Shown: in pieces, positions 4,526-58,125 of the stretch
How the letters are laid out: the number at the start of each line of letters is the position of its first letter
Position numbering within the stretch: the first letter of the stretch is position 1
Origin: a virus
Reading direction: 5' to 3' (one strand)
DNA length: 64,000 bases
UHGV virus genome: UHGV-0213393
Notes under the pieces: model-generated
Told to the model about the DNA's origin: nothing
The model's database searches: none
The model's input: the letters and a program-made list of their open reading frames with translations, nothing else
Position numbers and translations under genes: made by a program

Positions 4526-5101
4526 ATGTTAACGGCGAACGATAACGCGTATTCAGAAGATGATCTCGTTTTGAGTGACTTTATAGGGCGACGAGAATGC
4601 TGGACGCAAAAGCGCGAGGAGCTTTATGCAGCGTTAGTTCGTAAAGGCGTCAACATCGAAACCGCACAGAACGGTGATATGACAGTGGTAAGTGTTGGAC
4701 TGCACGGCGTAAGTGTGTCAGCAATCAATCACGAGCCGTACATTGCGTTATCCGAGTCGATGGTAAGGTTAGTTAAGTTCCTGAAGTACACAGAAGCGAA
4801 TAACGTGCTCATCGCCAAAAAGAACATCCCGTTCTCATCGGCCTTTTACTGGATGATGAAGGGGCTTGATGCCCGGCGAACATCATGGCCTAAAGGGAGC
4901 TATATATCGATGCTCCGTGGCAGTGTTGGTAGCAAAGAAAAGCTCGTCGAATTCCTGCCGGAAGAGGCATTCGATATTGTTGAAGGTTGTGATGTGATGG
5001 TTATGCCTCGCCTGGTAATGATGAATGGGGATTTACAGGCGCAGACAGACTGGTTTGCAACTGGTGTTGATATTATCGCTACTGACTGGGAGGTTTTTTG
5101 A
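4526..5101 (+). CDS. hypothetical protein
   Basis: 191-aa ORF with RBS aaggag; stop overlaps next start (ATGA). Confidence 0.55.
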   Translation: MLTANDNAYSEDDLVLSDFIGRRECWTQKREELYAALVRKGVNIETAQNGDMTVVSVGLHGVSVSAINHEPYIALSESMVRLVKFLKYTEANNVLIAKKNIPFSSAFYWMMKGLDARRTSWPKGSYISMLRGSVGSKEKLVEFLPEEAFDIVEGCDVMVMPRLVMMNGDLQAQTDWFATGVDIIATDWEVF

Positions 5102-5496: not shown

Positions 5497-5514
5497 ATTA
5501 ATTTTCTAATACAT
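5497..5514. promoter_or_regulatory. operator-like motif variant (ATTTTCTAATA)
   Basis: taattttctaatacat between ORFs. Confidence 0.35.
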
Positions 5515-5588
5515 CATGTTTTTGACAGTCTTCTCAGTATTAACAAGCTGATTATCATCCCCTCGGTCTTTTTCTATCCGGGGGATAA

Positions 5589-5981
5589 ATGGAGCAAATC
5601 AGTAGCGCCGAAATAGCGGATATCATGATCAGGGCTGACTGCTATCTGACGGTCACCGAAATCACCAGCCGTGCAAAAGCACAATATCCTCACCTTCATG
5701 TGTCGCGCGTAAACGTAAATAACATCATACGTTTTTTTGTTCGTTCCAGTCGTGCCATTTGCGAAATAGACGACCGCGTATACCCCCGGAAATATTGGTT
5801 ACATGGCCTGAATGGATACCAGTTCAAGGTGCGCGGGCGCACTCCTGAATTCGGTCGGCTGTTGGTGAAAAACACCAACCGAAAGATAGAAGCTCAATTA
5901 CGAAAGGAGCAGCGTCAGTTGGTGGCGATGACTAACCAGCTATGGAACGCCGCTGTGAAAAAACGTGAGGCTTCCCTATGA
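5589..5981 (+). CDS. hypothetical protein
   Basis: 130-aa ORF; overlaps start of downstream terminase small-subunit candidate. Confidence 0.5.
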   Translation: MEQISSAEIADIMIRADCYLTVTEITSRAKAQYPHLHVSRVNVNNIIRFFVRSSRAICEIDDRVYPRKYWLHGLNGYQFKVRGRTPEFGRLLVKNTNRKIEAQLRKEQRQLVAMTNQLWNAAVKKREASL

Positions 5982-7342
5982 CGTTAATTAACTGGGAGGC
6001 GCATCGAGCTAAGTTCCTGGAGTTAAGAGAAGAAACCGGGATCACCATAAAAGAATATTGCGAGCAGCATGACCTCAGCTTTAACACCGCCAGAAAGCAT
6101 CTCAATATGAAAAAAAATGAGGTTAAGGCGAAAGCTAAGGCTGCCGGGAAAAGTACAAAACAGCGCGCAAAAAGCAGCGCCACCGGCTCAAAAAAAGAGC
6201 AAAAAAAGGCTGATAAAAGCACAGAATTTACAAAAACTGACAAATCGTTAGCTGGTGGACAGTTCCGCGCCATGCCGCAAAAACAAAATGCGGATCACAA
6301 AGAAAAACCAAGTAATAACAACAGGATACACAAGGATGTGAAGGGATCATTTTGTGATGAAATGGGAGAAATGATCCCTAAAAGCAGCGAAAAAGCCCAA
6401 CGAAACAAGGGATCATTGCAAATGATCCCTGACTCATCAGCTCAAAGCGCCACTTTGCCTGCCACCAACGTCGCCCGTGAGATGATGAAGAACGGCGCGA
6501 CTGAACATTTACGACTTGCGATACAGATGGCGCAGGAACGAGCAATTCAGTATCAGGCCATCGTTGACCAGGAAGCGGAGCGACTACAGGAAGAGATTGA
6601 CGCCCTCGGCGATACACAGCCAGAGGGGATGCACCCAGGGCAGCGTCTTCTCGGCCTAATAAGCGATGCGGCCTACTACATGAATGACTTTATCAGTAGG
6701 TTGGCAGCCATCTACCAGACCGAGCAGAAGCTACGCCAGGGGGATGAAAAACTTGCGCAGGGCGCGCGTCAGCAGGCATTCAGGGAGGCTGAGGCCAGAG
6801 AAAAACTGGCGATTGCCCGCCTGCAGGCCGAGCAGCGTGGCAAGGAGATTGAGTATCGCATTGGCGCTGACGCACGCGCCGCCAGGGTTATCGCCGCCGC
6901 TATACGTATGCGTGAGCGCGAGGAGCTGGACGATATAGGCGTAGCTGAATATATCGAGCGGCAGGGCGTCAGTGTCCCAGCTATCCTGGCGGCACGAGCG
7001 GCAAAAGCGATCTCACTTCTGGAGCCTCCGGTTTCTGACGTTAACGATGTTGATGATGAGCAACTGGATAAAGAGGCGAAGCAGTTTGCCGAGCAACAAG
7101 CTGGACTCCCACAATGGCTTGCACAACGCCGGGCTGAAGTAGCGAAAATCGTTGATAGGCTTGGGATGGGGGATTACGACCGGAACGGAGAACGTAAAGC
7201 CGGTGAATTTGAGGCCAATGATGAAGACCTGAATATAGACCCTTCCGCCACGGCTGATATCTACGGTGATTATGACGCGGGGGATACCGGTTTTGATGCT
7301 GTAGATGACGAGATTGTGATAGACCAGCCGGAGGATGACTAA
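5978..7342 (+). CDS. putative terminase small subunit (PacA-like)
   Basis: Immediately upstream of and coupled to the ATPase terminase gene; N-terminal HTH-like region, K-rich linker, acidic C-terminus; contains internal GATC cluster. Confidence 0.45.
   Translation: MTLINWEAHRAKFLELREETGITIKEYCEQHDLSFNTARKHLNMKKNEVKAKAKAAGKSTKQRAKSSATGSKKEQKKADKSTEFTKTDKSLAGGQFRAMPQKQNADHKEKPSNNNRIHKDVKGSFCDEMGEMIPKSSEKAQRNKGSLQMIPDSSAQSATLPATNVAREMMKNGATEHLRLAIQMAQERAIQYQAIVDQEAERLQEEIDALGDTQPEGMHPGQRLLGLISDAAYYMNDFISRLAAIYQTEQKLRQGDEKLAQGARQQAFREAEAREKLAIARLQAEQRGKEIEYRIGADARAARVIAAAIRMREREELDDIGVAEYIERQGVSVPAILAARAAKAISLLEPPVSDVNDVDDEQLDKEAKQFAEQQAGLPQWLAQRRAEVAKIVDRLGMGDYDRNGERKAGEFEANDEDLNIDPSATADIYGDYDAGDTGFDAVDDEIVIDQPEDD
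6333..6430. promoter_or_regulatory. candidate pac site (clustered GATC inverted pairs)
   Basis: Four GATC as gggatcatt / aatgatccc pairs at 6345, 6373, 6411 and 6424 inside the small-terminase gene. Confidence 0.45.
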
Positions 7343-8850
7343 TGGCTGGTGGTCGTAAGATTAAGTGCGTCACCAGTGATCCACGTTGGCGCGATATGGT
7401 TATCAGGTATCGATACAACTTTACCCAGGCGGTTGTCGATATTTTTGGGATGTTCCCCTCCCATCAGCAGCAGCAGATCATTCAGTCAGTGCAGGAGACG
7501 GGGAGCAGGACGACCGTTACGTCCGGACACGGAACGGGTAAGTCATCCCTTACCGCGATGTTGCTACTAATTTTTATGATCCTGTTCCCCGACGCCCGCG
7601 TCATTATTGTTGCGAACAAAATAGGCCAGGTAAAAACAGGCGTATTCAAATACGTGAAACAGTTTTGGGCGAATGCTGTTAAGCGCCACGGCTGGTTACA
7701 GACCTATTTTGTCCTGTCTGACACCATGTTTTATGAGCGTTCCCGTAAAGGGATATGGGAAGTGCTCTGTAAAGGTTATCGACTCGGTAACGAAGAGGCA
7801 CTGGCGGGGGAGCACGCGGAGCATTTACTGCTAATCCTTGATGAAGCATCGGGCATATCCGATAAGGCGATTAACGTCATGACGGGGGCGTTAACGCAGA
7901 AAGATAACCGTATGCTCATGCTTTCCCAGCCTACGCGTCCAAGCGGTTACTTTTATGAATCCCACCATTCAAGGGCAAAGGCAGAAGGCAATCCGGAAGG
8001 AGTCTGGACGGCAATAGTCCTTAACTCTGAAGAATCTCCATTCGTTGAACCGAGCTTTATTCGTGAGAAATTGCTGGAGTACGGCGGCAGGGATTCGCTG
8101 GAGTACATGGTTAAGGTGCTGGGCCAGTTCCCGCGTGCAATTAACGGGTATTTGCTTGGTCGTGATGAGTGCGACCGCGCCGCACGGCGTAAAGTGTTGC
8201 TGGAGAAAGATTGGGGCTGGGTAGCGACCGCTGACGTCGGTAATGGTCGCGACAAATCGGTGCTCAATATATGCAAAGTATCCGGTTATCGTGAGAAACG
8301 ACGCGTTGTGAACTTTAAGATACTGGAGATGCCAGGCACTATGGACCCGTTGGCTTTTGCCGACTTTATCTATAACGAATGCACTCCTGATAAATACCCG
8401 AACATCACCATTGCTGTGGATGCTGATGGCTTTGGTTCAGATACGTGTGCGCAGCTTGTCCGCCGTGGTGCTAATCCCGTTCGCATCCGTTGGGGTAAGC
8501 CTATGTTTGCGCTAAGAGACAGAGAACGCTTTGTCAATCAGCGTGCTTACGCCAATATTATGGCAGGGGATGCCATTAAATCAGGGCGTATGCGTATCGA
8601 TAGTGACCCCAAAACCGCAGATCAGGCATCAAAAATCCCGTATATGCTTAACGAAGAAGGGAAGGTAGCGATGATGCGCAAGGAGCACATGCGGCAGAAG
8701 TTAAACATCAAGTCGCCGGACAGATGGGATACCTACTGCTTCACTATGCTGGTGGATTACGTGCCTGCTAATGAAGACATTGGCGCAGAACTCGCAACAT
8801 TCCGCGATCAGGTGTTGGCAGAAGTGGATATTCCTGATATTGACATTTAA
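7342..8850 (+). CDS. terminase large subunit (PacB-like)
   Basis: P-loop GHGTGKSS and Walker B LLILDEASG in N-terminal half; about 500 aa; coupled to upstream small-subunit candidate. Confidence 0.7.
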   Translation: MAGGRKIKCVTSDPRWRDMVIRYRYNFTQAVVDIFGMFPSHQQQQIIQSVQETGSRTTVTSGHGTGKSSLTAMLLLIFMILFPDARVIIVANKIGQVKTGVFKYVKQFWANAVKRHGWLQTYFVLSDTMFYERSRKGIWEVLCKGYRLGNEEALAGEHAEHLLLILDEASGISDKAINVMTGALTQKDNRMLMLSQPTRPSGYFYESHHSRAKAEGNPEGVWTAIVLNSEESPFVEPSFIREKLLEYGGRDSLEYMVKVLGQFPRAINGYLLGRDECDRAARRKVLLEKDWGWVATADVGNGRDKSVLNICKVSGYREKRRVVNFKILEMPGTMDPLAFADFIYNECTPDKYPNITIAVDADGFGSDTCAQLVRRGANPVRIRWGKPMFALRDRERFVNQRAYANIMAGDAIKSGRMRIDSDPKTADQASKIPYMLNEEGKVAMMRKEHMRQKLNIKSPDRWDTYCFTMLVDYVPANEDIGAELATFRDQVLAEVDIPDIDI

Positions 8851-8853
8851 AAG

Positions 8854-8873
8854 CCCCGGCGATTCGGGGCTTG
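8854..8873. terminator. bidirectional terminator hairpin
   Basis: gccccg-gcgatt-cggggc with T-run on minus strand, between convergent genes. Confidence 0.55.
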
Positions 8874-8887
8874 TGGGTGGTTTGCGA

Positions 8888-9925
8888 TTACCAGAGTTTT
8901 GCCGCGTACATCGTTTGTGTGAATGTGTACCCATAGCGTTCTTCAACGCTTTTACCGTATTTTTTCCTGGCTTCAGTAAGGCGGATGCCTGTCAGGTCAT
9001 CGCCGGAGGCAATCATAACTTCCAGTAGTTCCAGGTCCATTTTATCCAGCCTTGCCATTGCATCTTTAGCCTCTTGAATTTTCCGGCTAACGATCTGGTG
9101 TATGGCTGGATCGGCTTCGGCCAGCATTTTATCTGATTTGTTTTTTAAACTCTGATTGCGGATATCAATGTTTCTCAGGATATATGACTTCACGACATAG
9201 CTTGGCTGCTGCTTTTCCAGATCACGAACCCGATAAAGGTCAAATTCGCCGAGAAGTCCGCACGGAAGCGGTTTAATGCCAGTGTAAATGGTAAGGGTAC
9301 GGCGCTCACCAACGTTGTTAACAACGGGAATCTCTGTGTTTGCTTTTCTTGCAAAGATCAGCGCACCGTGCGCACCCACTCGGAAGCGTGAAAGTCCATT
9401 GTTGCCCTCGATATTGGTGGTAATCACCACATCGGTATAACCTTCTTTTCTTGCGCGGTATACCTCGCCCTCACGTTCAGCGGCGAAGAATCTGCGTTCT
9501 TCTTCAAGCGCACCGACAACCTGTGAAAATATCCTGTTTTTCATGCTTTTCTTTATAGTTTTATCGTATTTTTTCAGCAGGTCTTCGCGCGTAAATGTTC
9601 TCGTTGTGGTTGCGCTTTGCATAACGATATGCGTACTCTGATTAGTATCCTCAACAATGAATGGGATCGGTAAATAAACCGACTCAACAATGTTTGAGGC
9701 TTTGTCATCATCCTTGCGACACAGATCAACAAAGGCTTTCCATTCGGCTATGCATTTTTCAGCTTCTTCTAATACAGCCGGATCATGTGTTAATGCAACA
9801 TGGCGAAATTCCTCGCCAACATAACTGGTATCATGGAAAACAGAGTTTGCGACCACCAGCTCTTTCCACCGTTCAGCGGTTTGCAGGAACCGTTTGTACT
9901 CATTCTCGATCGACTTCTTACTCAT
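8888..9925 (-). CDS. hypothetical protein; candidate C1-type repressor by synteny only
   Basis: Start chosen at MSKKSIENEY with RBS AGGA; sits between terminase and the lox/cre module, where P1 carries c1; operator-like motif in its own promoter. Confidence 0.5.
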   Translation of the reverse strand: MSKKSIENEYKRFLQTAERWKELVVANSVFHDTSYVGEEFRHVALTHDPAVLEEAEKCIAEWKAFVDLCRKDDDKASNIVESVYLPIPFIVEDTNQSTHIVMQSATTTRTFTREDLLKKYDKTIKKSMKNRIFSQVVGALEEERRFFAAEREGEVYRARKEGYTDVVITTNIEGNNGLSRFRVGAHGALIFARKANTEIPVVNNVGERRTLTIYTGIKPLPCGLLGEFDLYRVRDLEKQQPSYVVKSYILRNIDIRNQSLKNKSDKMLAEADPAIHQIVSRKIQEAKDAMARLDKMDLELLEVMIASGDDLTGIRLTEARKKYGKSVEERYGYTFTQTMYAAKLW

Positions 9926-10121: not shown

Positions 10122-10155
10122 CTAACTTTAAATAATTGGCATTATTTAAAGTTAG
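10122..10155. other. lox-like recombination site (13-bp inverted arms, 8-bp asymmetric spacer)
   Basis: ctaactttaaata-attggcat-tatttaaagttag; arms resemble loxP ATAACTTCGTATA; about 150 bp upstream of the Cre-like gene. Confidence 0.65.
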
Positions 10156-10306: not shown

Positions 10307-11335
10307 ATGGGTGAACTAGTTATCTCCGGCGGTTCTGGTGGTTTTCTGCGCGATATTGGCACCGAATACCAAGAAGCTGCAAAAAACTTTATGCAGTTCA
10401 TGAACGACCAGGGAGCTTATGCCCCAAATACGCTTCGAGATCTCCGTCTGGTGTTTCATTCCTGGGCGCGGTGGTGTAACTCGCGCCAGCGCCCCTGGTT
10501 CCCGATTACGCCGGAAATGGCCCGCGAGTATCTTCTCCAGTTGCATGAGGCCGATCTGGCTTCGACCACCATTGATAAGCACTATGCCATGCTTAACATG
10601 CTGCTTTCGCAATGTGGCCTCCCGCCGCTCTCGGACGATAAAAGTGTGTCTCTGGCCATGCGGCGCATCCGGCGCGAAGCGGCAACGGAAAAAGGCGAGC
10701 GAACAGGCCAGGCTATACCGTTGCGGTGGGATGATCTGAAATTGCTCGACGTATTGCTGTCCCGTTCCGAGCGGCTGGTGGACCTGCGCAATCGGGCGTT
10801 TCTCTTCGTGGCATACAATACCCTGATGCGTATGTCAGAAATCTCGCGCATCCGCGTCGGAGATCTGGACCAAACAGGTGACACTGTAACGCTGCATATT
10901 TCACACACGAAGACCATCACGACCGCCGCCGGACTTGATAAGGTGCTTTCTCGTTGCACTACCGCCGTACTGAACGACTGGCTGGAGGTGTCCGGACTTC
11001 GTCAACATCCGGACGCGGTGCTATTCCCGCCAATACACCGCAGTAATAAGGCCAGAATCACGACAACTCCCCTTACTGCACCTGCAATGGAGAAAATATT
11101 CAGCGATGCCTGGGGGTTGCTGAACAAACGAGATGCCACGCCGAACAAGGGAAGATACCGGACGTGGACAGGCCATAGTGCGCGTGTTGGTGCGGCAATT
11201 GATATGGCTGAGAAACAGGTGTCAATGGTCGAGATCATGCAGGAAGGCACATGGAAAAAGCCCGAAACACTTATGCGATATTTGCGCCGTAGCGGGGCAT
11301 CCGTTGGTGCAAATAGTCGCCTGATGGATTCCTGA
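10307..11335 (+). CDS. cre: Cre-like tyrosine site-specific recombinase
   Basis: Blocks SVSLAMRRIRRE, RNRAFLFVAYNTLMRMSEISRIRVGDL and WTGHSARVGAAIDMAEK...MQEGTW match Cre as recalled; catalytic Tyr in LMRYLRR. Confidence 0.9.
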   Translation: MGELVISGGSGGFLRDIGTEYQEAAKNFMQFMNDQGAYAPNTLRDLRLVFHSWARWCNSRQRPWFPITPEMAREYLLQLHEADLASTTIDKHYAMLNMLLSQCGLPPLSDDKSVSLAMRRIRREAATEKGERTGQAIPLRWDDLKLLDVLLSRSERLVDLRNRAFLFVAYNTLMRMSEISRIRVGDLDQTGDTVTLHISHTKTITTAAGLDKVLSRCTTAVLNDWLEVSGLRQHPDAVLFPPIHRSNKARITTTPLTAPAMEKIFSDAWGLLNKRDATPNKGRYRTWTGHSARVGAAIDMAEKQVSMVEIMQEGTWKKPETLMRYLRRSGASVGANSRLMDS

Positions 11336-32781: not shown

Positions 32782-33405
32782 TTATTGCCCGTATTTTTTA
32801 CACCATTGCTCTGCCATTTGTTTGGCTAAAGGCCCGGCTACTGCACTGTATTCTGCTGTTTTACTTTGCACACATGAAGCAGATGGTTTTTTATTTCGCT
32901 GCTCGGTTAGTTTGCGCTCATAAGCCATCATGCTATCGAACCCGGCAATATCACTTTGGCGAAGCATTCCCTTTTTAACCAAAAATTGCTGCCCCTCTGG
33001 CACCAACGCAAGCATAAAAAGAGGTTGCAATAACTCACCTAATCCTTGCTGGCGATACACTTCGAATTGCTGCCATCCCTGACTTAATCTGGAAAGAGTA
33101 TCTTTGGTTGAATAACCTGTTTTTGTTATAGCTTTGTCCGTCAGATATGCTGTATATGCAAAAACGCAAAAGTCAGTTTTACCAATAAACTGAGTTCCAA
33201 CAGGCCGTAATAGAATGCCCTCCCTCTTGCAAAAGTCCATAATTGCCGCTTGTGAATGATCCCCACCAGCGTTATTCATAACCTGCTGTCCTGCCCTGAA
33301 TTGTGCAGGTAACGCAGTTGCATTGGCAGTATTAACAGATACGCATCCCAACATAGCCGCGAGCGCGGCCCCTAAAACCCTTAACTTCACTACACCATCC
33401 TTCAT
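32782..33405 (-). CDS. secreted/periplasmic hypothetical protein
   Basis: 207-aa ORF with N-terminal signal-peptide-like segment. Confidence 0.55.
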   Translation of the reverse strand: MKDGVVKLRVLGAALAAMLGCVSVNTANATALPAQFRAGQQVMNNAGGDHSQAAIMDFCKREGILLRPVGTQFIGKTDFCVFAYTAYLTDKAITKTGYSTKDTLSRLSQGWQQFEVYRQQGLGELLQPLFMLALVPEGQQFLVKKGMLRQSDIAGFDSMMAYERKLTEQRNKKPSASCVQSKTAEYSAVAGPLAKQMAEQWCKKYGQ

Positions 33406-41995: not shown

Positions 41996-42659
41996 TAACC
42001 GACCGCTGGCGGTGAGTCTTTGTGATTATACAGGGAATATGGTTTCCCCCTGGCTGGAACACGGCATTGATGCAGTCATTGTCGATCCGCAACACCAGGA
42101 GTCCGGCAGCCAATTGATGGAGTCAGGTGCTGTACTCACACGTATCAGCGCAATTATTGACAGTGATGAGGTCTACAATTTCCTTCGGAAAAATTTGCAC
42201 AGAGTTGTATTTTTAGCCGGTTTCCCTCCATGTACTGACCTGGCTGTATCTGGCGCACGCTGGTTCGCAGATAAAGCGAAAAAAGATCCGGTTTTCCAGT
42301 TCAAAGCAATGCAGGTTGTCTGGCAGTGTTACGACATTGCAAAGATGATTGGTTGCCCGTACATGATTGAAAACCCGGTCAGCCAAATATCGACATTCTG
42401 GCGTAAACCTGATCACATATTCCATCCTTATCACTTCACTGCATATTGCAAGGAAGACAATTACACCAAAAAAACATGCCTGTGGAGCGGACAAGGATTC
42501 ATCATGCCAACTCCGCGAATCGACGAGTCGTTAGGTGATCCAGACAACCGAATACACAAGGCACCGCCAGGACCTGAAAGAGCGAATTTTCGTAGCGCGA
42601 CACCTTACGGTTTTGCAAGAGCTGTATTTGAAGCAAATAAGGAGGGAATCCGTGGCTGA
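41853..42659 (+). CDS. C5-cytosine methyltransferase-like protein (start uncertain)
   Basis: GFPPCTDLAVSG (motif IV-like PC) and MIENPV (ENV motif); overlaps the rdgC 3' end. Confidence 0.45.
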   Translation: MISMTRTMTSTVKMLPSDLMLTSFCSQANYPRCLARWWRPLAVKQSINNRPLAVSLCDYTGNMVSPWLEHGIDAVIVDPQHQESGSQLMESGAVLTRISAIIDSDEVYNFLRKNLHRVVFLAGFPPCTDLAVSGARWFADKAKKDPVFQFKAMQVVWQCYDIAKMIGCPYMIENPVSQISTFWRKPDHIFHPYHFTAYCKEDNYTKKTCLWSGQGFIMPTPRIDESLGDPDNRIHKAPPGPERANFRSATPYGFARAVFEANKEGIRG

Positions 42660-43569
42660 TATTGGTGCTAAATTTATTTCTTATAGCGACAATCATCGTC
42701 CTGCGGCGGAAGCCACTATCAGCCATATGCGACGTATTCGCTCGGAGGACGAATTTGATCGCCCCGTCTTTAAGTGGGTCGGCGGCAAATTTTCTGCACT
42801 GCCCATTATCTTCGAACACCTGCCCCACGGAAAACGGTTGATAGAACCTTTCGTTGGAGGTGGCGCTGTTTTCACTAATGCCGGATTTAAAAGCAACCTG
42901 CTGAACGATATCAATAATGACCTGATTAACTTCTATCAGACATTGCAGCGTGAAGGGCATTCTCTTATCACACTGGCATATCGTTTTTTTCAGGATTACA
43001 ACTCTGCTGATGCATTTTTGAATGTTCGCAATGCATTCAACAATGGTGCTTATGATTCCCTTCACCATGCAGCGGCGTTCCTGTATCTCAATCGTCATTG
43101 TTTTAATGGCGTCACTCGCTATAACCGTAAAGGAGAGTTCAACGTCGGATATGGAAAGCAGAAATCCCCCCACTTCCCTCTCGCGGAAATGGAGGCGTTC
43201 CTGGCTGACGATATTTCAAAGTATTCGGAATTTGTGTCCGGCGATTTTGCTGGTGTAATTGAGGCTGCAGGGAATGATGATGTGATTTTCTGCGATCCCC
43301 CCTATGAACCATTGCCCGACACTACCGGATTTACAAATTACTCAGGGCATAGCTTTAGGTTTGAAGATCAACAACGGCTGGTGTCACTGCTGGTGGATGC
43401 CCACAGACGCGGAGCGAAAATTGTGATAACAAACAGTGGTGCGCCTAACATTCGCGAACTTTACGTTGGCAATGGCTTCAAGGTGTATCCTATGCCATCC
43501 CGTCGCTCTGTATCCTGTAAAGCATCAACCCGAATGATAGCTAACGACATTATAGCCACGCTCAATTAA
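42652..43569 (+). CDS. dam: DNA adenine methyltransferase (Dam-like)
   Basis: FKWVGGK, EPFVGGGAV and DPPY motifs; GTG start with RBS AGGAGGG overlapping upstream stop. Confidence 0.8.
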   Translation: MADIGAKFISYSDNHRPAAEATISHMRRIRSEDEFDRPVFKWVGGKFSALPIIFEHLPHGKRLIEPFVGGGAVFTNAGFKSNLLNDINNDLINFYQTLQREGHSLITLAYRFFQDYNSADAFLNVRNAFNNGAYDSLHHAAAFLYLNRHCFNGVTRYNRKGEFNVGYGKQKSPHFPLAEMEAFLADDISKYSEFVSGDFAGVIEAAGNDDVIFCDPPYEPLPDTTGFTNYSGHSFRFEDQQRLVSLLVDAHRRGAKIVITNSGAPNIRELYVGNGFKVYPMPSRRSVSCKASTRMIANDIIATLN

Positions 43570-56711: not shown

Positions 56712-56942
56712 ATGTTGACTATAGTCGAAATGGCTTACAACTAATGTTGACTGTACTCGATACCGATCACAAAACATTGACTACACACGACAAGAAATGA
56801 GGAAAGATTGACTATAAGCGACAAATACTCAATGAAATAGCTGGTTTATCCATTGATCATGTGAAAAAGTTAATAACTAAATCCGCCAGCATCAATGTTT
56901 GTCGCGTATAGTCAACGCTTGGAATCGCACACAGTCAATGTT
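56712..56942. repeat. iteron array downstream of repA (incA-like)
   Basis: About six 19-bp repeats related to ATCGCACATAGTCAACATT in both orientations. Confidence 0.7.
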
Positions 56943-57825
56943 ATGGATTTCGTTTATGGATCTGGAAACCTATTTTCCGACCATTCTTTATCTCTGAAAA
57001 TTTAAGATATTCAACAGCTTCCAAGTCTTTCATGGCTTTACGAATCACACTGTTCTGAACGCTAACCGATGATTTGAGGTTCAATCTGGCGCGAAGGCGC
57101 TCAATACTCACTGGCGCAGGGTTTGAAGGTAACGCTTCGAAAAACGTATAAAGCACCTTGGCTGTCTCTTTCCTGCCAAGTTTATCGAGCATTTTGAGCT
57201 TCAATATTCGCTTATAGTCAACGTAATACAACTCAGACAACTGCTTCTGCGGTTGGATTCTTATAATGTCATTTTCAGTATCAAGTTCACTAAATGCCAA
57301 TAAATTCATCTGGATATAACGAACATGTTCTTTGCTGGTGGGCAAGTTGAACTTCAGCAACGTCTGCTGAATACGCGTTAGAGAGTCGCCAATGCTCTTG
57401 CGAAAAGCCTTGGACAGCCGCTTCCTTGGATAACCGCAACGATCCACAAATTCAGAGAATGTCAGGGTGATCACACCATCATTATCTGGTTTATAGTCAA
57501 ACAATGCAGATGTAATGCCTATCCACACCTTAAAATCAGTATCCATATCCAGCCGTGGCCCATGAATCTCAATACCCTGATACCCTTCCTGCTCTACAAT
57601 CTTCAGGCTGGACAGTTCTTCTGTCGCATCAGTGGAGTTAGTTAAACCGGCGTTCTTGCGACGTAAAGCAACACTGGTAGATTTCAATGTGGGAACAAAC
57701 ACCCCAAGCCGCAACAAAGCTATCGGCTGAATAGTGCTATTATTGTTAGGCTTTAAGCTGTGGATTTCTCCGGTATTCCCTGATATTTCCTCAACGTTCA
57801 GAAAGCCTTTTTTGTCATCTACCAT
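56941..57825 (-). CDS. repA: RepA iteron-binding replication initiator (P1 RepA family)
   Basis: IQPIALLRLGVFVP and GPRLDMDTDFKVWIGI match P1 RepA as recalled; flanked by iterons on both sides. Confidence 0.9.
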   Translation of the reverse strand: MVDDKKGFLNVEEISGNTGEIHSLKPNNNSTIQPIALLRLGVFVPTLKSTSVALRRKNAGLTNSTDATEELSSLKIVEQEGYQGIEIHGPRLDMDTDFKVWIGITSALFDYKPDNDGVITLTFSEFVDRCGYPRKRLSKAFRKSIGDSLTRIQQTLLKFNLPTSKEHVRYIQMNLLAFSELDTENDIIRIQPQKQLSELYYVDYKRILKLKMLDKLGRKETAKVLYTFFEALPSNPAPVSIERLRARLNLKSSVSVQNSVIRKAMKDLEAVEYLKFSEIKNGRKIGFQIHKRNP

Positions 57826-57883: not shown

Positions 57884-57904
57884 CCGTCTGAGGGCTGAGA
57901 GAAT

Positions 57905-58009
57905 TATCGCATACAGTCAATGTTTATATCGCATATAGTCAACATTAAATCGCGTACAGTCAACATTAAATCGCACATAGTCAACATTAAATCGCACATA
58001 GTCAATGTT
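57905..58009. repeat. five direct 19-bp iterons upstream of repA (origin/incC-like)
   Basis: atcgcatacagtcaatgtt, atcgcatatagtcaacatt, atcgcgtacagtcaacatt, atcgcacatagtcaacatt, atcgcacatagtcaatgtt at 21-23 bp spacing. Confidence 0.85.
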
Positions 58010-58044
58010 GATCTCCATTTAGGCCAGTGATGGCGCGGCTCGCA

Positions 58045-58125
58045 GCGATCCGGGATCTTCTTTGGATCTTACTGGTTCTCTTTGGGATCTATTTATTGGA
58101 TCTACCCTGTGGATAAATAGGTTAA
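58045..58125. promoter_or_regulatory. GATC cluster with second DnaA box, origin-associated
   Basis: Five GATC within about 70 bp then ctgtggataaa. Confidence 0.6.

Follow-up and report, generated by a model that had tools for sequence, protein, structure and literature searches.

The small-terminase gene pacA in the 64,000-nucleotide stretch of virus genome UHGV-0213393 (the window, to which all positions refer) contains a cluster of oriented GATC repeats at 6291-6430, which probably forms the recognition region of the packaging (pac) site used by this element, a P1-family phage-plasmid resembling Escherichia phage D6. The best reading of the cluster is a P1-type pac site of variant architecture, composed of one site plus four and lacking the 4+3 split seen in P1; gating of cleavage by methylation at the cluster is proposed with somewhat less confidence than the site itself. 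A P1-type pac site within the small-terminase gene had been put forward as a candidate in a sequence-only reading of the window, and sequence comparison supports this suggestion through the homologues of the genes involved, the position of the cluster, its phylogenetic footprint, the family-wide occurrence of similar arrays, the methylase encoded by the element, and the distance to the recombination site rox.

The cluster comprises five GATC sites, at 6293, 6345, 6373, 6411, and 6424 (pacA nt 316, 368, 396, 434, and 447), all of which lie inside the 454-codon PacA open reading frame (ORF) on the plus strand (5978-7342). These sites, together with a possible outlying one, are as follows:

6291-6298, plus strand: site 0, cGGATCAc (CGGATCAC), with GATC at 6293-6296 and the GGATCA core that is common to the other four sites
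6342-6352, plus strand: site 1, AGGGATCATTT, with GATC at 6345-6348
6369-6379, minus strand: site 2, AAATGATCCCT, in the opposite orientation, with GATC at 6373-6376
6408-6417, plus strand: site 3, AGGGATCATT, with GATC at 6411-6414
6421-6430, minus strand: site 4, AATGATCCCT, in the opposite orientation, with GATC at 6424-6427
6038-6045, plus strand: possible outlying site, GGGATCAC, within the pacA segment coding for the N-terminal domain

The 9-mer GGGATCATT is found at 6343-6351 and 6409-6417, and its reverse complement AATGATCCC at 6370-6378 and 6421-6429, and these copies form two inverted pairs, AGGGATCATTT-N16-AAATGATCCCT (6342-6379) and AGGGATCATT-gca-AATGATCCCT (6408-6430). The sequence-only reading had described four GATCs arranged as inverted pairs in the PacA-like ORF, and the GATCs at 6345, 6373, 6411, and 6424 confirm that arrangement; the extent it assigned, 6333-6430, does hold these four sites, but it leaves out a fifth site of this type (6291-6298), which had been overlooked. 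The five sites span 135 bp in a 1+4 layout, with spacings of 52, 28, 38, and 13 bp between consecutive sites. Their consensus, GGGATCATTT, is an asymmetric 9-10-mer in which G, not T, precedes GATCA at all five sites, and TGATCA, which has 30 copies in the window, has none in the cluster.

Clustering of these motifs was judged by 20,000 random placements in the window. The 9-mer GGGATCAT has five copies in the 64 kb, four of which fall within 87 bp, a concentration reached in 0 of the 20,000 placements, and GGATCA has 39 copies in the window with five within 135 bp, which was reached in a single placement. The sole copy of AATGATCCC outside the pacA cluster, at 33255-33263, is about what chance would supply. 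For the bare tetranucleotide there is no overall excess (225 GATCs found against about 244 expected), and random placement of 225 GATCs brings four within 79 bp somewhere in 43% of cases and five within 131 bp in 21%; a denser GATC cluster than that of pacA is in fact present in the same window, at 58010-58099. The comparison of GATC density with the rest of the genome, which the sequence-only reading had put forward as a refutation test, was run and gave no enrichment beyond chance. This density test is uninformative about a pac site, because the signal resides in the repeat around GATC and in the conservation of that repeat. A chance cluster without function, which the bare density would permit (P about 0.2-0.4), retains a practically negligible probability, being effectively refuted by the clustering at the level of the motif and by conservation across clades.

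Conservation was assessed in 28 distinct pacA genes taken from IMG/VR and PLSDB, consisting of 27 D6-like sequences and an Enterobacter hormaechei outgroup (L033); L034 (pSa1423-160k), whose pacA region is broken into small ORFs, was excluded. A PacA scan of GTDB species-representative genomes returned no relatives, and the set was built from plasmid, IMG/VR, and PacB-profile searches. The five cluster GATCs occupy the same pacA positions across the 27 D6-like sequences, with losses only in L026 and L030, in both of which GATC has become GACC. At site 0, the GATC (nt 316) is kept in 27 of 27, the Asp codon always being GAT, and at site 1, where the loss in L026 is the only one, the GATC survives a change from Gly (GGA) to Arg (AGA) in the D6 clade. 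Site 2 contains a 10-nt run, AAATGATCCC, that is invariant across four D6-like clades, its GATC being lost only in L030; the GATC of site 3 never changes among the D6-like sequences, whereas the flanking bases and the encoded residues do (GGA/AGA; TCA/TCT); and site 4 contains a 9-nt run, AATGATCCC, that is invariant across the four clades and is also present in the outgroup. The other GATCs of pacA (nt 589, 1032, 1086, 1147, and 1261) are each restricted to single clades. As for the possible outlying site, GGGATCAC is invariant across the four D6-like clades and absent from the outgroup, which has GGCATTAC instead; it may be conserved for the encoded Gly-Ile-Thr, and its membership of the cluster is uncertain.

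The conserved sites are embedded in the most variable part of pacA, where DNA identity between clades is 61-64% (nt 130-480) and where the encoded linker (aa 48-160) has 38% protein identity to that of D6, compared with 79% and 87% for the flanking domains. Among four clade representatives, 20 of 20 GATC columns are invariant, compared with 47% of columns across the linker, and just three invariant runs of at least 8 bases lie wholly within the linker in the four clades, AAATGATCCC and AATGATCCC among them. Relative to D6, all five cluster GATCs are kept at a local identity of 56-60%, whereas the flanking 6 kb, at about 80%, retains 11 of its 22. On these alignments, the sites are phylogenetic footprints within a fast-evolving linker.

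Conservation of this kind might be imposed by the protein, with a linker peptide K-G-S-F/L ... M-I-P needed by the terminase and the GATCs incidental to it. Met-Ile-Pro and Gly/Arg-Ser are indeed kept in all D6-like clades, and the cluster sites are fixed in frame, without insertions or deletions. However, the two peptide types correspond to one DNA 9-mer, which gives Gly-Ser-Phe/Leu in one orientation and frame and Met-Ile-Pro in the other, a pattern not expected of a peptide repeat, and the replacements of Gly by Arg retain the GATC. Moreover, the wobble bases within the cluster GATCs (GAT, GGA/AGA, and ATC) never vary, compared with 35% of wobble positions being invariant gene-wide at codons conserved for their amino acid; the remainder of the linker is poorly conserved as protein; and GATCA arrays are retained in other lineages whose encoded peptides are unrelated, (G/S)DH repeats being one example. 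A requirement for the peptide is therefore very unlikely to explain the repeats, and the evidence points to a constraint on DNA rather than on protein, given the 9-mer that is read in two frames, the GATC that outlives the change from Gly to Arg, the fixed wobble bases, and the low protein identity of the linker.

Two further observations concern the same gene. Upstream of the cluster, at 6089-6123 (pacA nt 112-146), a 35-nt run, GCCAGAAAGCATCTCAATATGAAAAAAAATGAGGT, is invariant across the four D6-like clades, including all 11 of its wobble positions, and is found in 31 of 32 sequences despite an overall gene identity of about 75%, though it is not conserved in the outgroup L033. This run spans the codons for the last part of the presumed recognition helix and includes an A8 stretch; a programmed frameshift at that stretch (6110) was considered and rejected, as a -1 slip leads to an immediate TGA and a peptide of about 46 N-terminal residues, and there is no conserved ORF in an alternative frame. 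Separately, the 23.6-kb isolate contig L029 (IMGVR_UViG_2537562191_000021) starts one base past the site 0 GATC of a D6-clade pacA, the sequence reading GGATC, then the break, then ATGAAAATAATG; in this single case, the contig start could be an accident of assembly or library preparation or a real DNA end.

The inverted pairs might alternatively act as hairpins, either in the structure of pacA mRNA, as an antisense terminator on the minus strand (6430-6408), or as a DNA cruciform. The region folds better than its shuffled counterparts (z = -3.1), and a terminator-like hairpin is listed on the minus strand, where 94% of cells pair, by way of G-U. On that strand, the second inverted repeat (6430-6408) followed by TGTTTCGTTG scores as an antisense terminator-like hairpin. 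Compensatory change, however, is confined to one terminal pair, and on the plus strand the variation is disruptive, leaving 84% paired; the paired percentage lies at most 1.2 points over the shuffled mean on either strand, and the minus strand, which is the only reading with a candidate function, does not exceed its shuffles (46/500). Because GATC is its own complement, much of the pairing is trivial, and site 0 lacks a partner altogether. The T-tract of the minus strand is weak, D6 having a comparable stem followed by AATTTTTGG and the L038/L032 clade having no T-tract. A role as hairpins is thus highly improbable, and the negative outcome of these tests leads to the repeats being read as independent, oriented elements that are predicted to be bound by a protein.

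The surrounding genes identify the element. The features that bear on packaging, recombination, and methylation are as follows:

5589-5981: lpa, late-promoter activator (Pfam BPP1_LPA)
5978-7342, plus strand: pacA, small terminase or pacase A subunit, 454 aa (phrog_1711 'terminase', 558 bits; phrog_370 'terminase small subunit')
7342-8850, plus strand: pacB, large terminase or pacase B subunit, 502 aa (phrog_2 'terminase large subunit')
10123-10154, plus strand: rox, target of Dre (exact match to D6 rox; 0 matches in shuffles)
10307-11335: ORF of the Dre recombinase (94% identity to D6 Dre)
42652-43569, plus strand: Dam-family N6-adenine DNA methyltransferase (PF02086, E 1.7e-53; TIGR00571, 231.6 bits)

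The 3.5 kb at 5500-9000 has 79% DNA identity to phage D6 across lpa, pacA, pacB, and c1; PacA has 74% identity to D6 PacA, and PacB has 56% identity to P1 PacB over 488 aa. Because of this D6-like stretch, the presence of rox and Dre, and the homology of PacB, the element is, as judged from its sequence, a D6-like phage-plasmid of the P1 family with the module lpa-pacA-pacB-c1-rox-dre. PacA sequences with 97.6-98.9% identity are carried by non-mobilizable plasmids of about 92 kb in E. marmotae and E. coli; plasmids in this identity range include NZ_CP099353, NZ_CP104667, and NZ_LR890273. The conservation of Dre and of rox is far above that of PacA in the same module. The Dam-like methyltransferase that had been claimed at 42652-43569 is borne out by its matches to PF02086, to TIGR00571, and to E. 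coli Dam (2G1P, E 1.6e-51); its product also matches DpnII M1 (E 7e-45) and has 80% identity to a D6 'site-specific DNA-adenine methylase', and a specificity for GATC is likely on these similarities.

In P1, the pac site consists of seven TGATCA/G hexamers whose Dam methylation is needed for cleavage; hemimethylated sites are bound and not cut, and IHF/HU is required (Sternberg & Coulby 1987/1988 and Skorupski et al. 1994, in the summary of PMC10028697). The annotated P1 pac (NC_005856) has its hexamers at pacA nt 195-229 and 325-376, with the IHF site and the cuts between them and cleavage at about nt 276-285. The cluster described here resembles it in lying in the 5' third of pacA and upstream of pacB (nt 316-450 of a 1365-nt gene, compared with nt 195-380 of the 1194-nt P1 pacA), in consisting of several Dam-site repeats with a GATCA core, and in occupying the stretch that codes for a hydrophilic linker of low conservation. 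Both elements also encode a Dam-family methylase, and in both the site lies about 4 kb upstream of a recombination site, which is lox in P1 and rox here: rox is 3.7 kb downstream of the cluster, and the distance from the P1 cut (90805-90813) to lox (94784) is 4.0 kb. At this distance from pac, lox in P1 falls within the terminally redundant part of the first headfuls. Unlike the palindromic TGATCA/G of P1, the repeat here is asymmetric, GGGATCATT(T), and occurs in both orientations as two head-to-head pairs. Whereas P1 pac has an annotated IHF site, only a weak element with two mismatches is present here:

6316-6328, plus strand: weak IHF-like element TAACAACAGGATA, between site 0 and site 1, with 2 mismatches to WATCAANNNNTTR

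This element occupies the same alignment position in all clades, as TAACAATGAGATA in D6, TAACAGTGAGTTA in L038/L032, and AAACAATAGGATA in L033, and it resembles the annotated P1 pac IHF site AAACAAAGAGTTA, although matches as weak as this are common in A-rich DNA. Outside the P1 family, a packaging signal inside the gene of its own recognition protein is also known from P22, SPP1, and Gally-type prophages, whose pac sites, to our knowledge, are neither GATC arrays nor gated by methylation.

Similar arrays recur across the P1 family. A wider set of pacA genes, gathered with PacA and a PacB profile, includes Enterobacter, Pantoea, Citrobacter, Serratia, and Leclercia plasmids as well as IMG/VR contigs, and GATCA arrays are present in the same part of pacA in p60214CZ_1 (the E. 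hormaechei plasmid L033), in other P1-family prophage plasmids, and in IMG/VR contigs L078-L116. In all of the pacA lineages examined, nt 100-500 hold 10-22 GATC per kb, compared with 1-7 per kb elsewhere in the gene, and nearly all of the GATCs in these arrays are GATCA with a 5' flank that is specific to the lineage. In most lineages there are two arrays, a left one that keeps strictly to a 12-bp period and encodes (G/S)DH repeats and a right one that is smaller; of these, the D6-like clade has the right-hand cluster only. In L033/L078, whose PacA has 53% identity, the right cluster aligns with the D6-like cluster, and the left array contains GGGATCATT twice with the P1-like 12-bp period. 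The flanks and the presumed recognition helices of PacA are distributed as follows:

TGATCA: P1, Pantoea, Serratia, and Citrobacter; presumed recognition helix NTARR[YE]L
GGGATCA: D6-like clades, L033/L078, and L080/L111; presumed recognition helix ..RK[HK]L
GCGATCA: L115 and L116; presumed recognition helices GTARRNL and NSVRREF

L033/L078 and L080/L111 share with the D6-like clade both the GGGATCA flank and an Arg-Lys pair in the presumed recognition helix, which reads Arg-Lys-His in the present PacA and Arg-Arg-Tyr in that of P1. This distribution is suggestive of co-evolution of PacA and its site across lineages; the match between flank and helix falls short of proof, because the lineages of the G type may form a single clade. 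The arrays of the third repeat type, (A/C)GCGATCA, in the distant P1-family pacA genes of L116 and L115 (both from IMG/VR) are very large, extending over nt 187-520 in L116, with 14 GATCs in about 330 nt, and over nt 209-277 in L115.

Clustered GATCs whose methylation state is read by a protein are also found at replication origins, such as E. coli oriC and P1 oriR, and the cluster in pacA could be viewed as a Dam/SeqA-sensitive regulatory element whose hemimethylated GATCs, bound by SeqA or another methylation-sensitive protein, would time the expression of pacA and pacB or couple some other process to replication, with pac lying elsewhere. With their 13-bp spacing, sites 3 and 4 would be suitable for SeqA, and the window has a GATC cluster of the origin type at 58010-58099, beside iterons and a DnaA box. 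That cluster, however, is intergenic and has the flank GGATCT, whereas the pacA cluster is coding and has no iterons; at an origin, the readers would be SeqA and the replication machinery, not a terminase. No promoter-like site is present in or near the pacA cluster on either strand, the conserved asymmetric 9-10-mer GGGATCATTT far exceeds what SeqA or Dam would need, and it is the corresponding arrays that make up pac in P1 (PMC10028697). The shift of the 5' flank with the pacA lineage points to PacA, and not to SeqA or Dam, as the reader of the repeats. Regulation through Dam and SeqA is consequently an unlikely account of the cluster, if the least unlikely of the alternatives considered. 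The origin itself, at 57900-58120, reads as a plasmid replication origin with about five 21-bp iterons (atcgcaYaYagtcaaYattaa), followed by the GATC cluster and then by a DnaA box, TGTGGATAA, at 58110-58118. Its cluster has six GATCs in 89 bp, four of them as GGATCT, and is the densest in the window, and a 294-aa ORF on the minus strand (56941-57825), a putative rep gene, adjoins the origin.

With the cluster read as a pac site, packaging can be pictured by analogy with P1. At a late stage of infection, PacA would bind, through its N-terminal DNA-binding domain, the five oriented elements of the GGGATCATT type after both strands of their GATCs have been adenine-methylated by host Dam and/or by the element's own Dam-family enzyme. 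PacA would then bring in PacB, possibly aided by a host protein that bends DNA at the weak IHF-like element, and the PacA-PacB complex would cut the concatemer within or beside the cluster. Headful packaging would proceed rightwards, through pacB and c1 towards rox, and packaging in this direction from the cluster would place rox in the terminal redundancy of the first headfuls, which could then be circularised by Dre. Newly replicated, hemimethylated copies would be bound and not cut, which may delay cleavage and protect the plasmid prophage. The start of packaging, the position of the cut, the direction of packaging, the binding of PacA, and the dependence on methylation are all points that we infer.

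Several observations weigh against a P1-type pac site at this position. The present PacA has only 20% identity to P1 PacA (E 3e-8), and the bare GATC density of the cluster has no significance relative to random placement. In P1, the hexamers are arranged 4+3 around a cleavage core of about 90 bp, whereas the sites here are arranged 1+4 with a largest gap of 52 bp; the D6-like clade lacks the left array of 12-bp period that its nearest outgroup has, and shows a 12-nt gap there. No match to the IHF consensus with at most one mismatch is found in pacA nt 1-580, and no virion DNA end is annotated in the D6 GenBank records. As regards the methylation gate in particular, the invariance of the GATC core could arise from base-specific recognition by PacA with no role for methylation.

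A P1-like pac site in the pacA of a P1 relative is what a specialist would expect, and the finding is no surprise in kind. No description of a D6-type pac site was found in the searchable literature or in GenBank records, a search that did not take in the D6 genome paper, which may comment on it. Beyond the site itself, it can be proposed tentatively, at a confidence that stays below even, that the recognition code of the pac site has changed in D6-type phage-plasmids, that its layout there is compact and one-sided, built of oriented head-to-head GGGATCATT pairs, and that the bases preceding GATCA (T, GG, or GC) have co-evolved with PacA. If so, related phage-plasmids within one cell would each package only their own DNA while the Dam-methylation gate is kept throughout, and the family would offer a natural set of orthogonal, methylation-gated packaging signals. 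The lineage-specific flank of GATCA would also provide a testable model of a small terminase and its site co-evolving with retention of a methylation switch.

D6-like plasmid prophages are common in E. coli, Shigella, and Salmonella, including invasive multidrug-resistant lineages (PMC6799933; bioRxiv 10.1101/2025.09.12.675607). For these elements, the defined 140-bp candidate indicates where the first virion end should be sought; it would permit the construction of D6-based phagemids or transduction-enhancing inserts, and its synonymous recoding would disable D6-derived helpers. P1 pac has already been used for phagemids and transduction-enhancing inserts.

Upstream of lpa, a 191-aa ORF (4526-5101) encodes a Tad2-like (Thoeris anti-defence 2) domain (PF11195, E 4e-10), and its homologues on related plasmids carry the annotation 'MW1434 family type I TA system toxin'.

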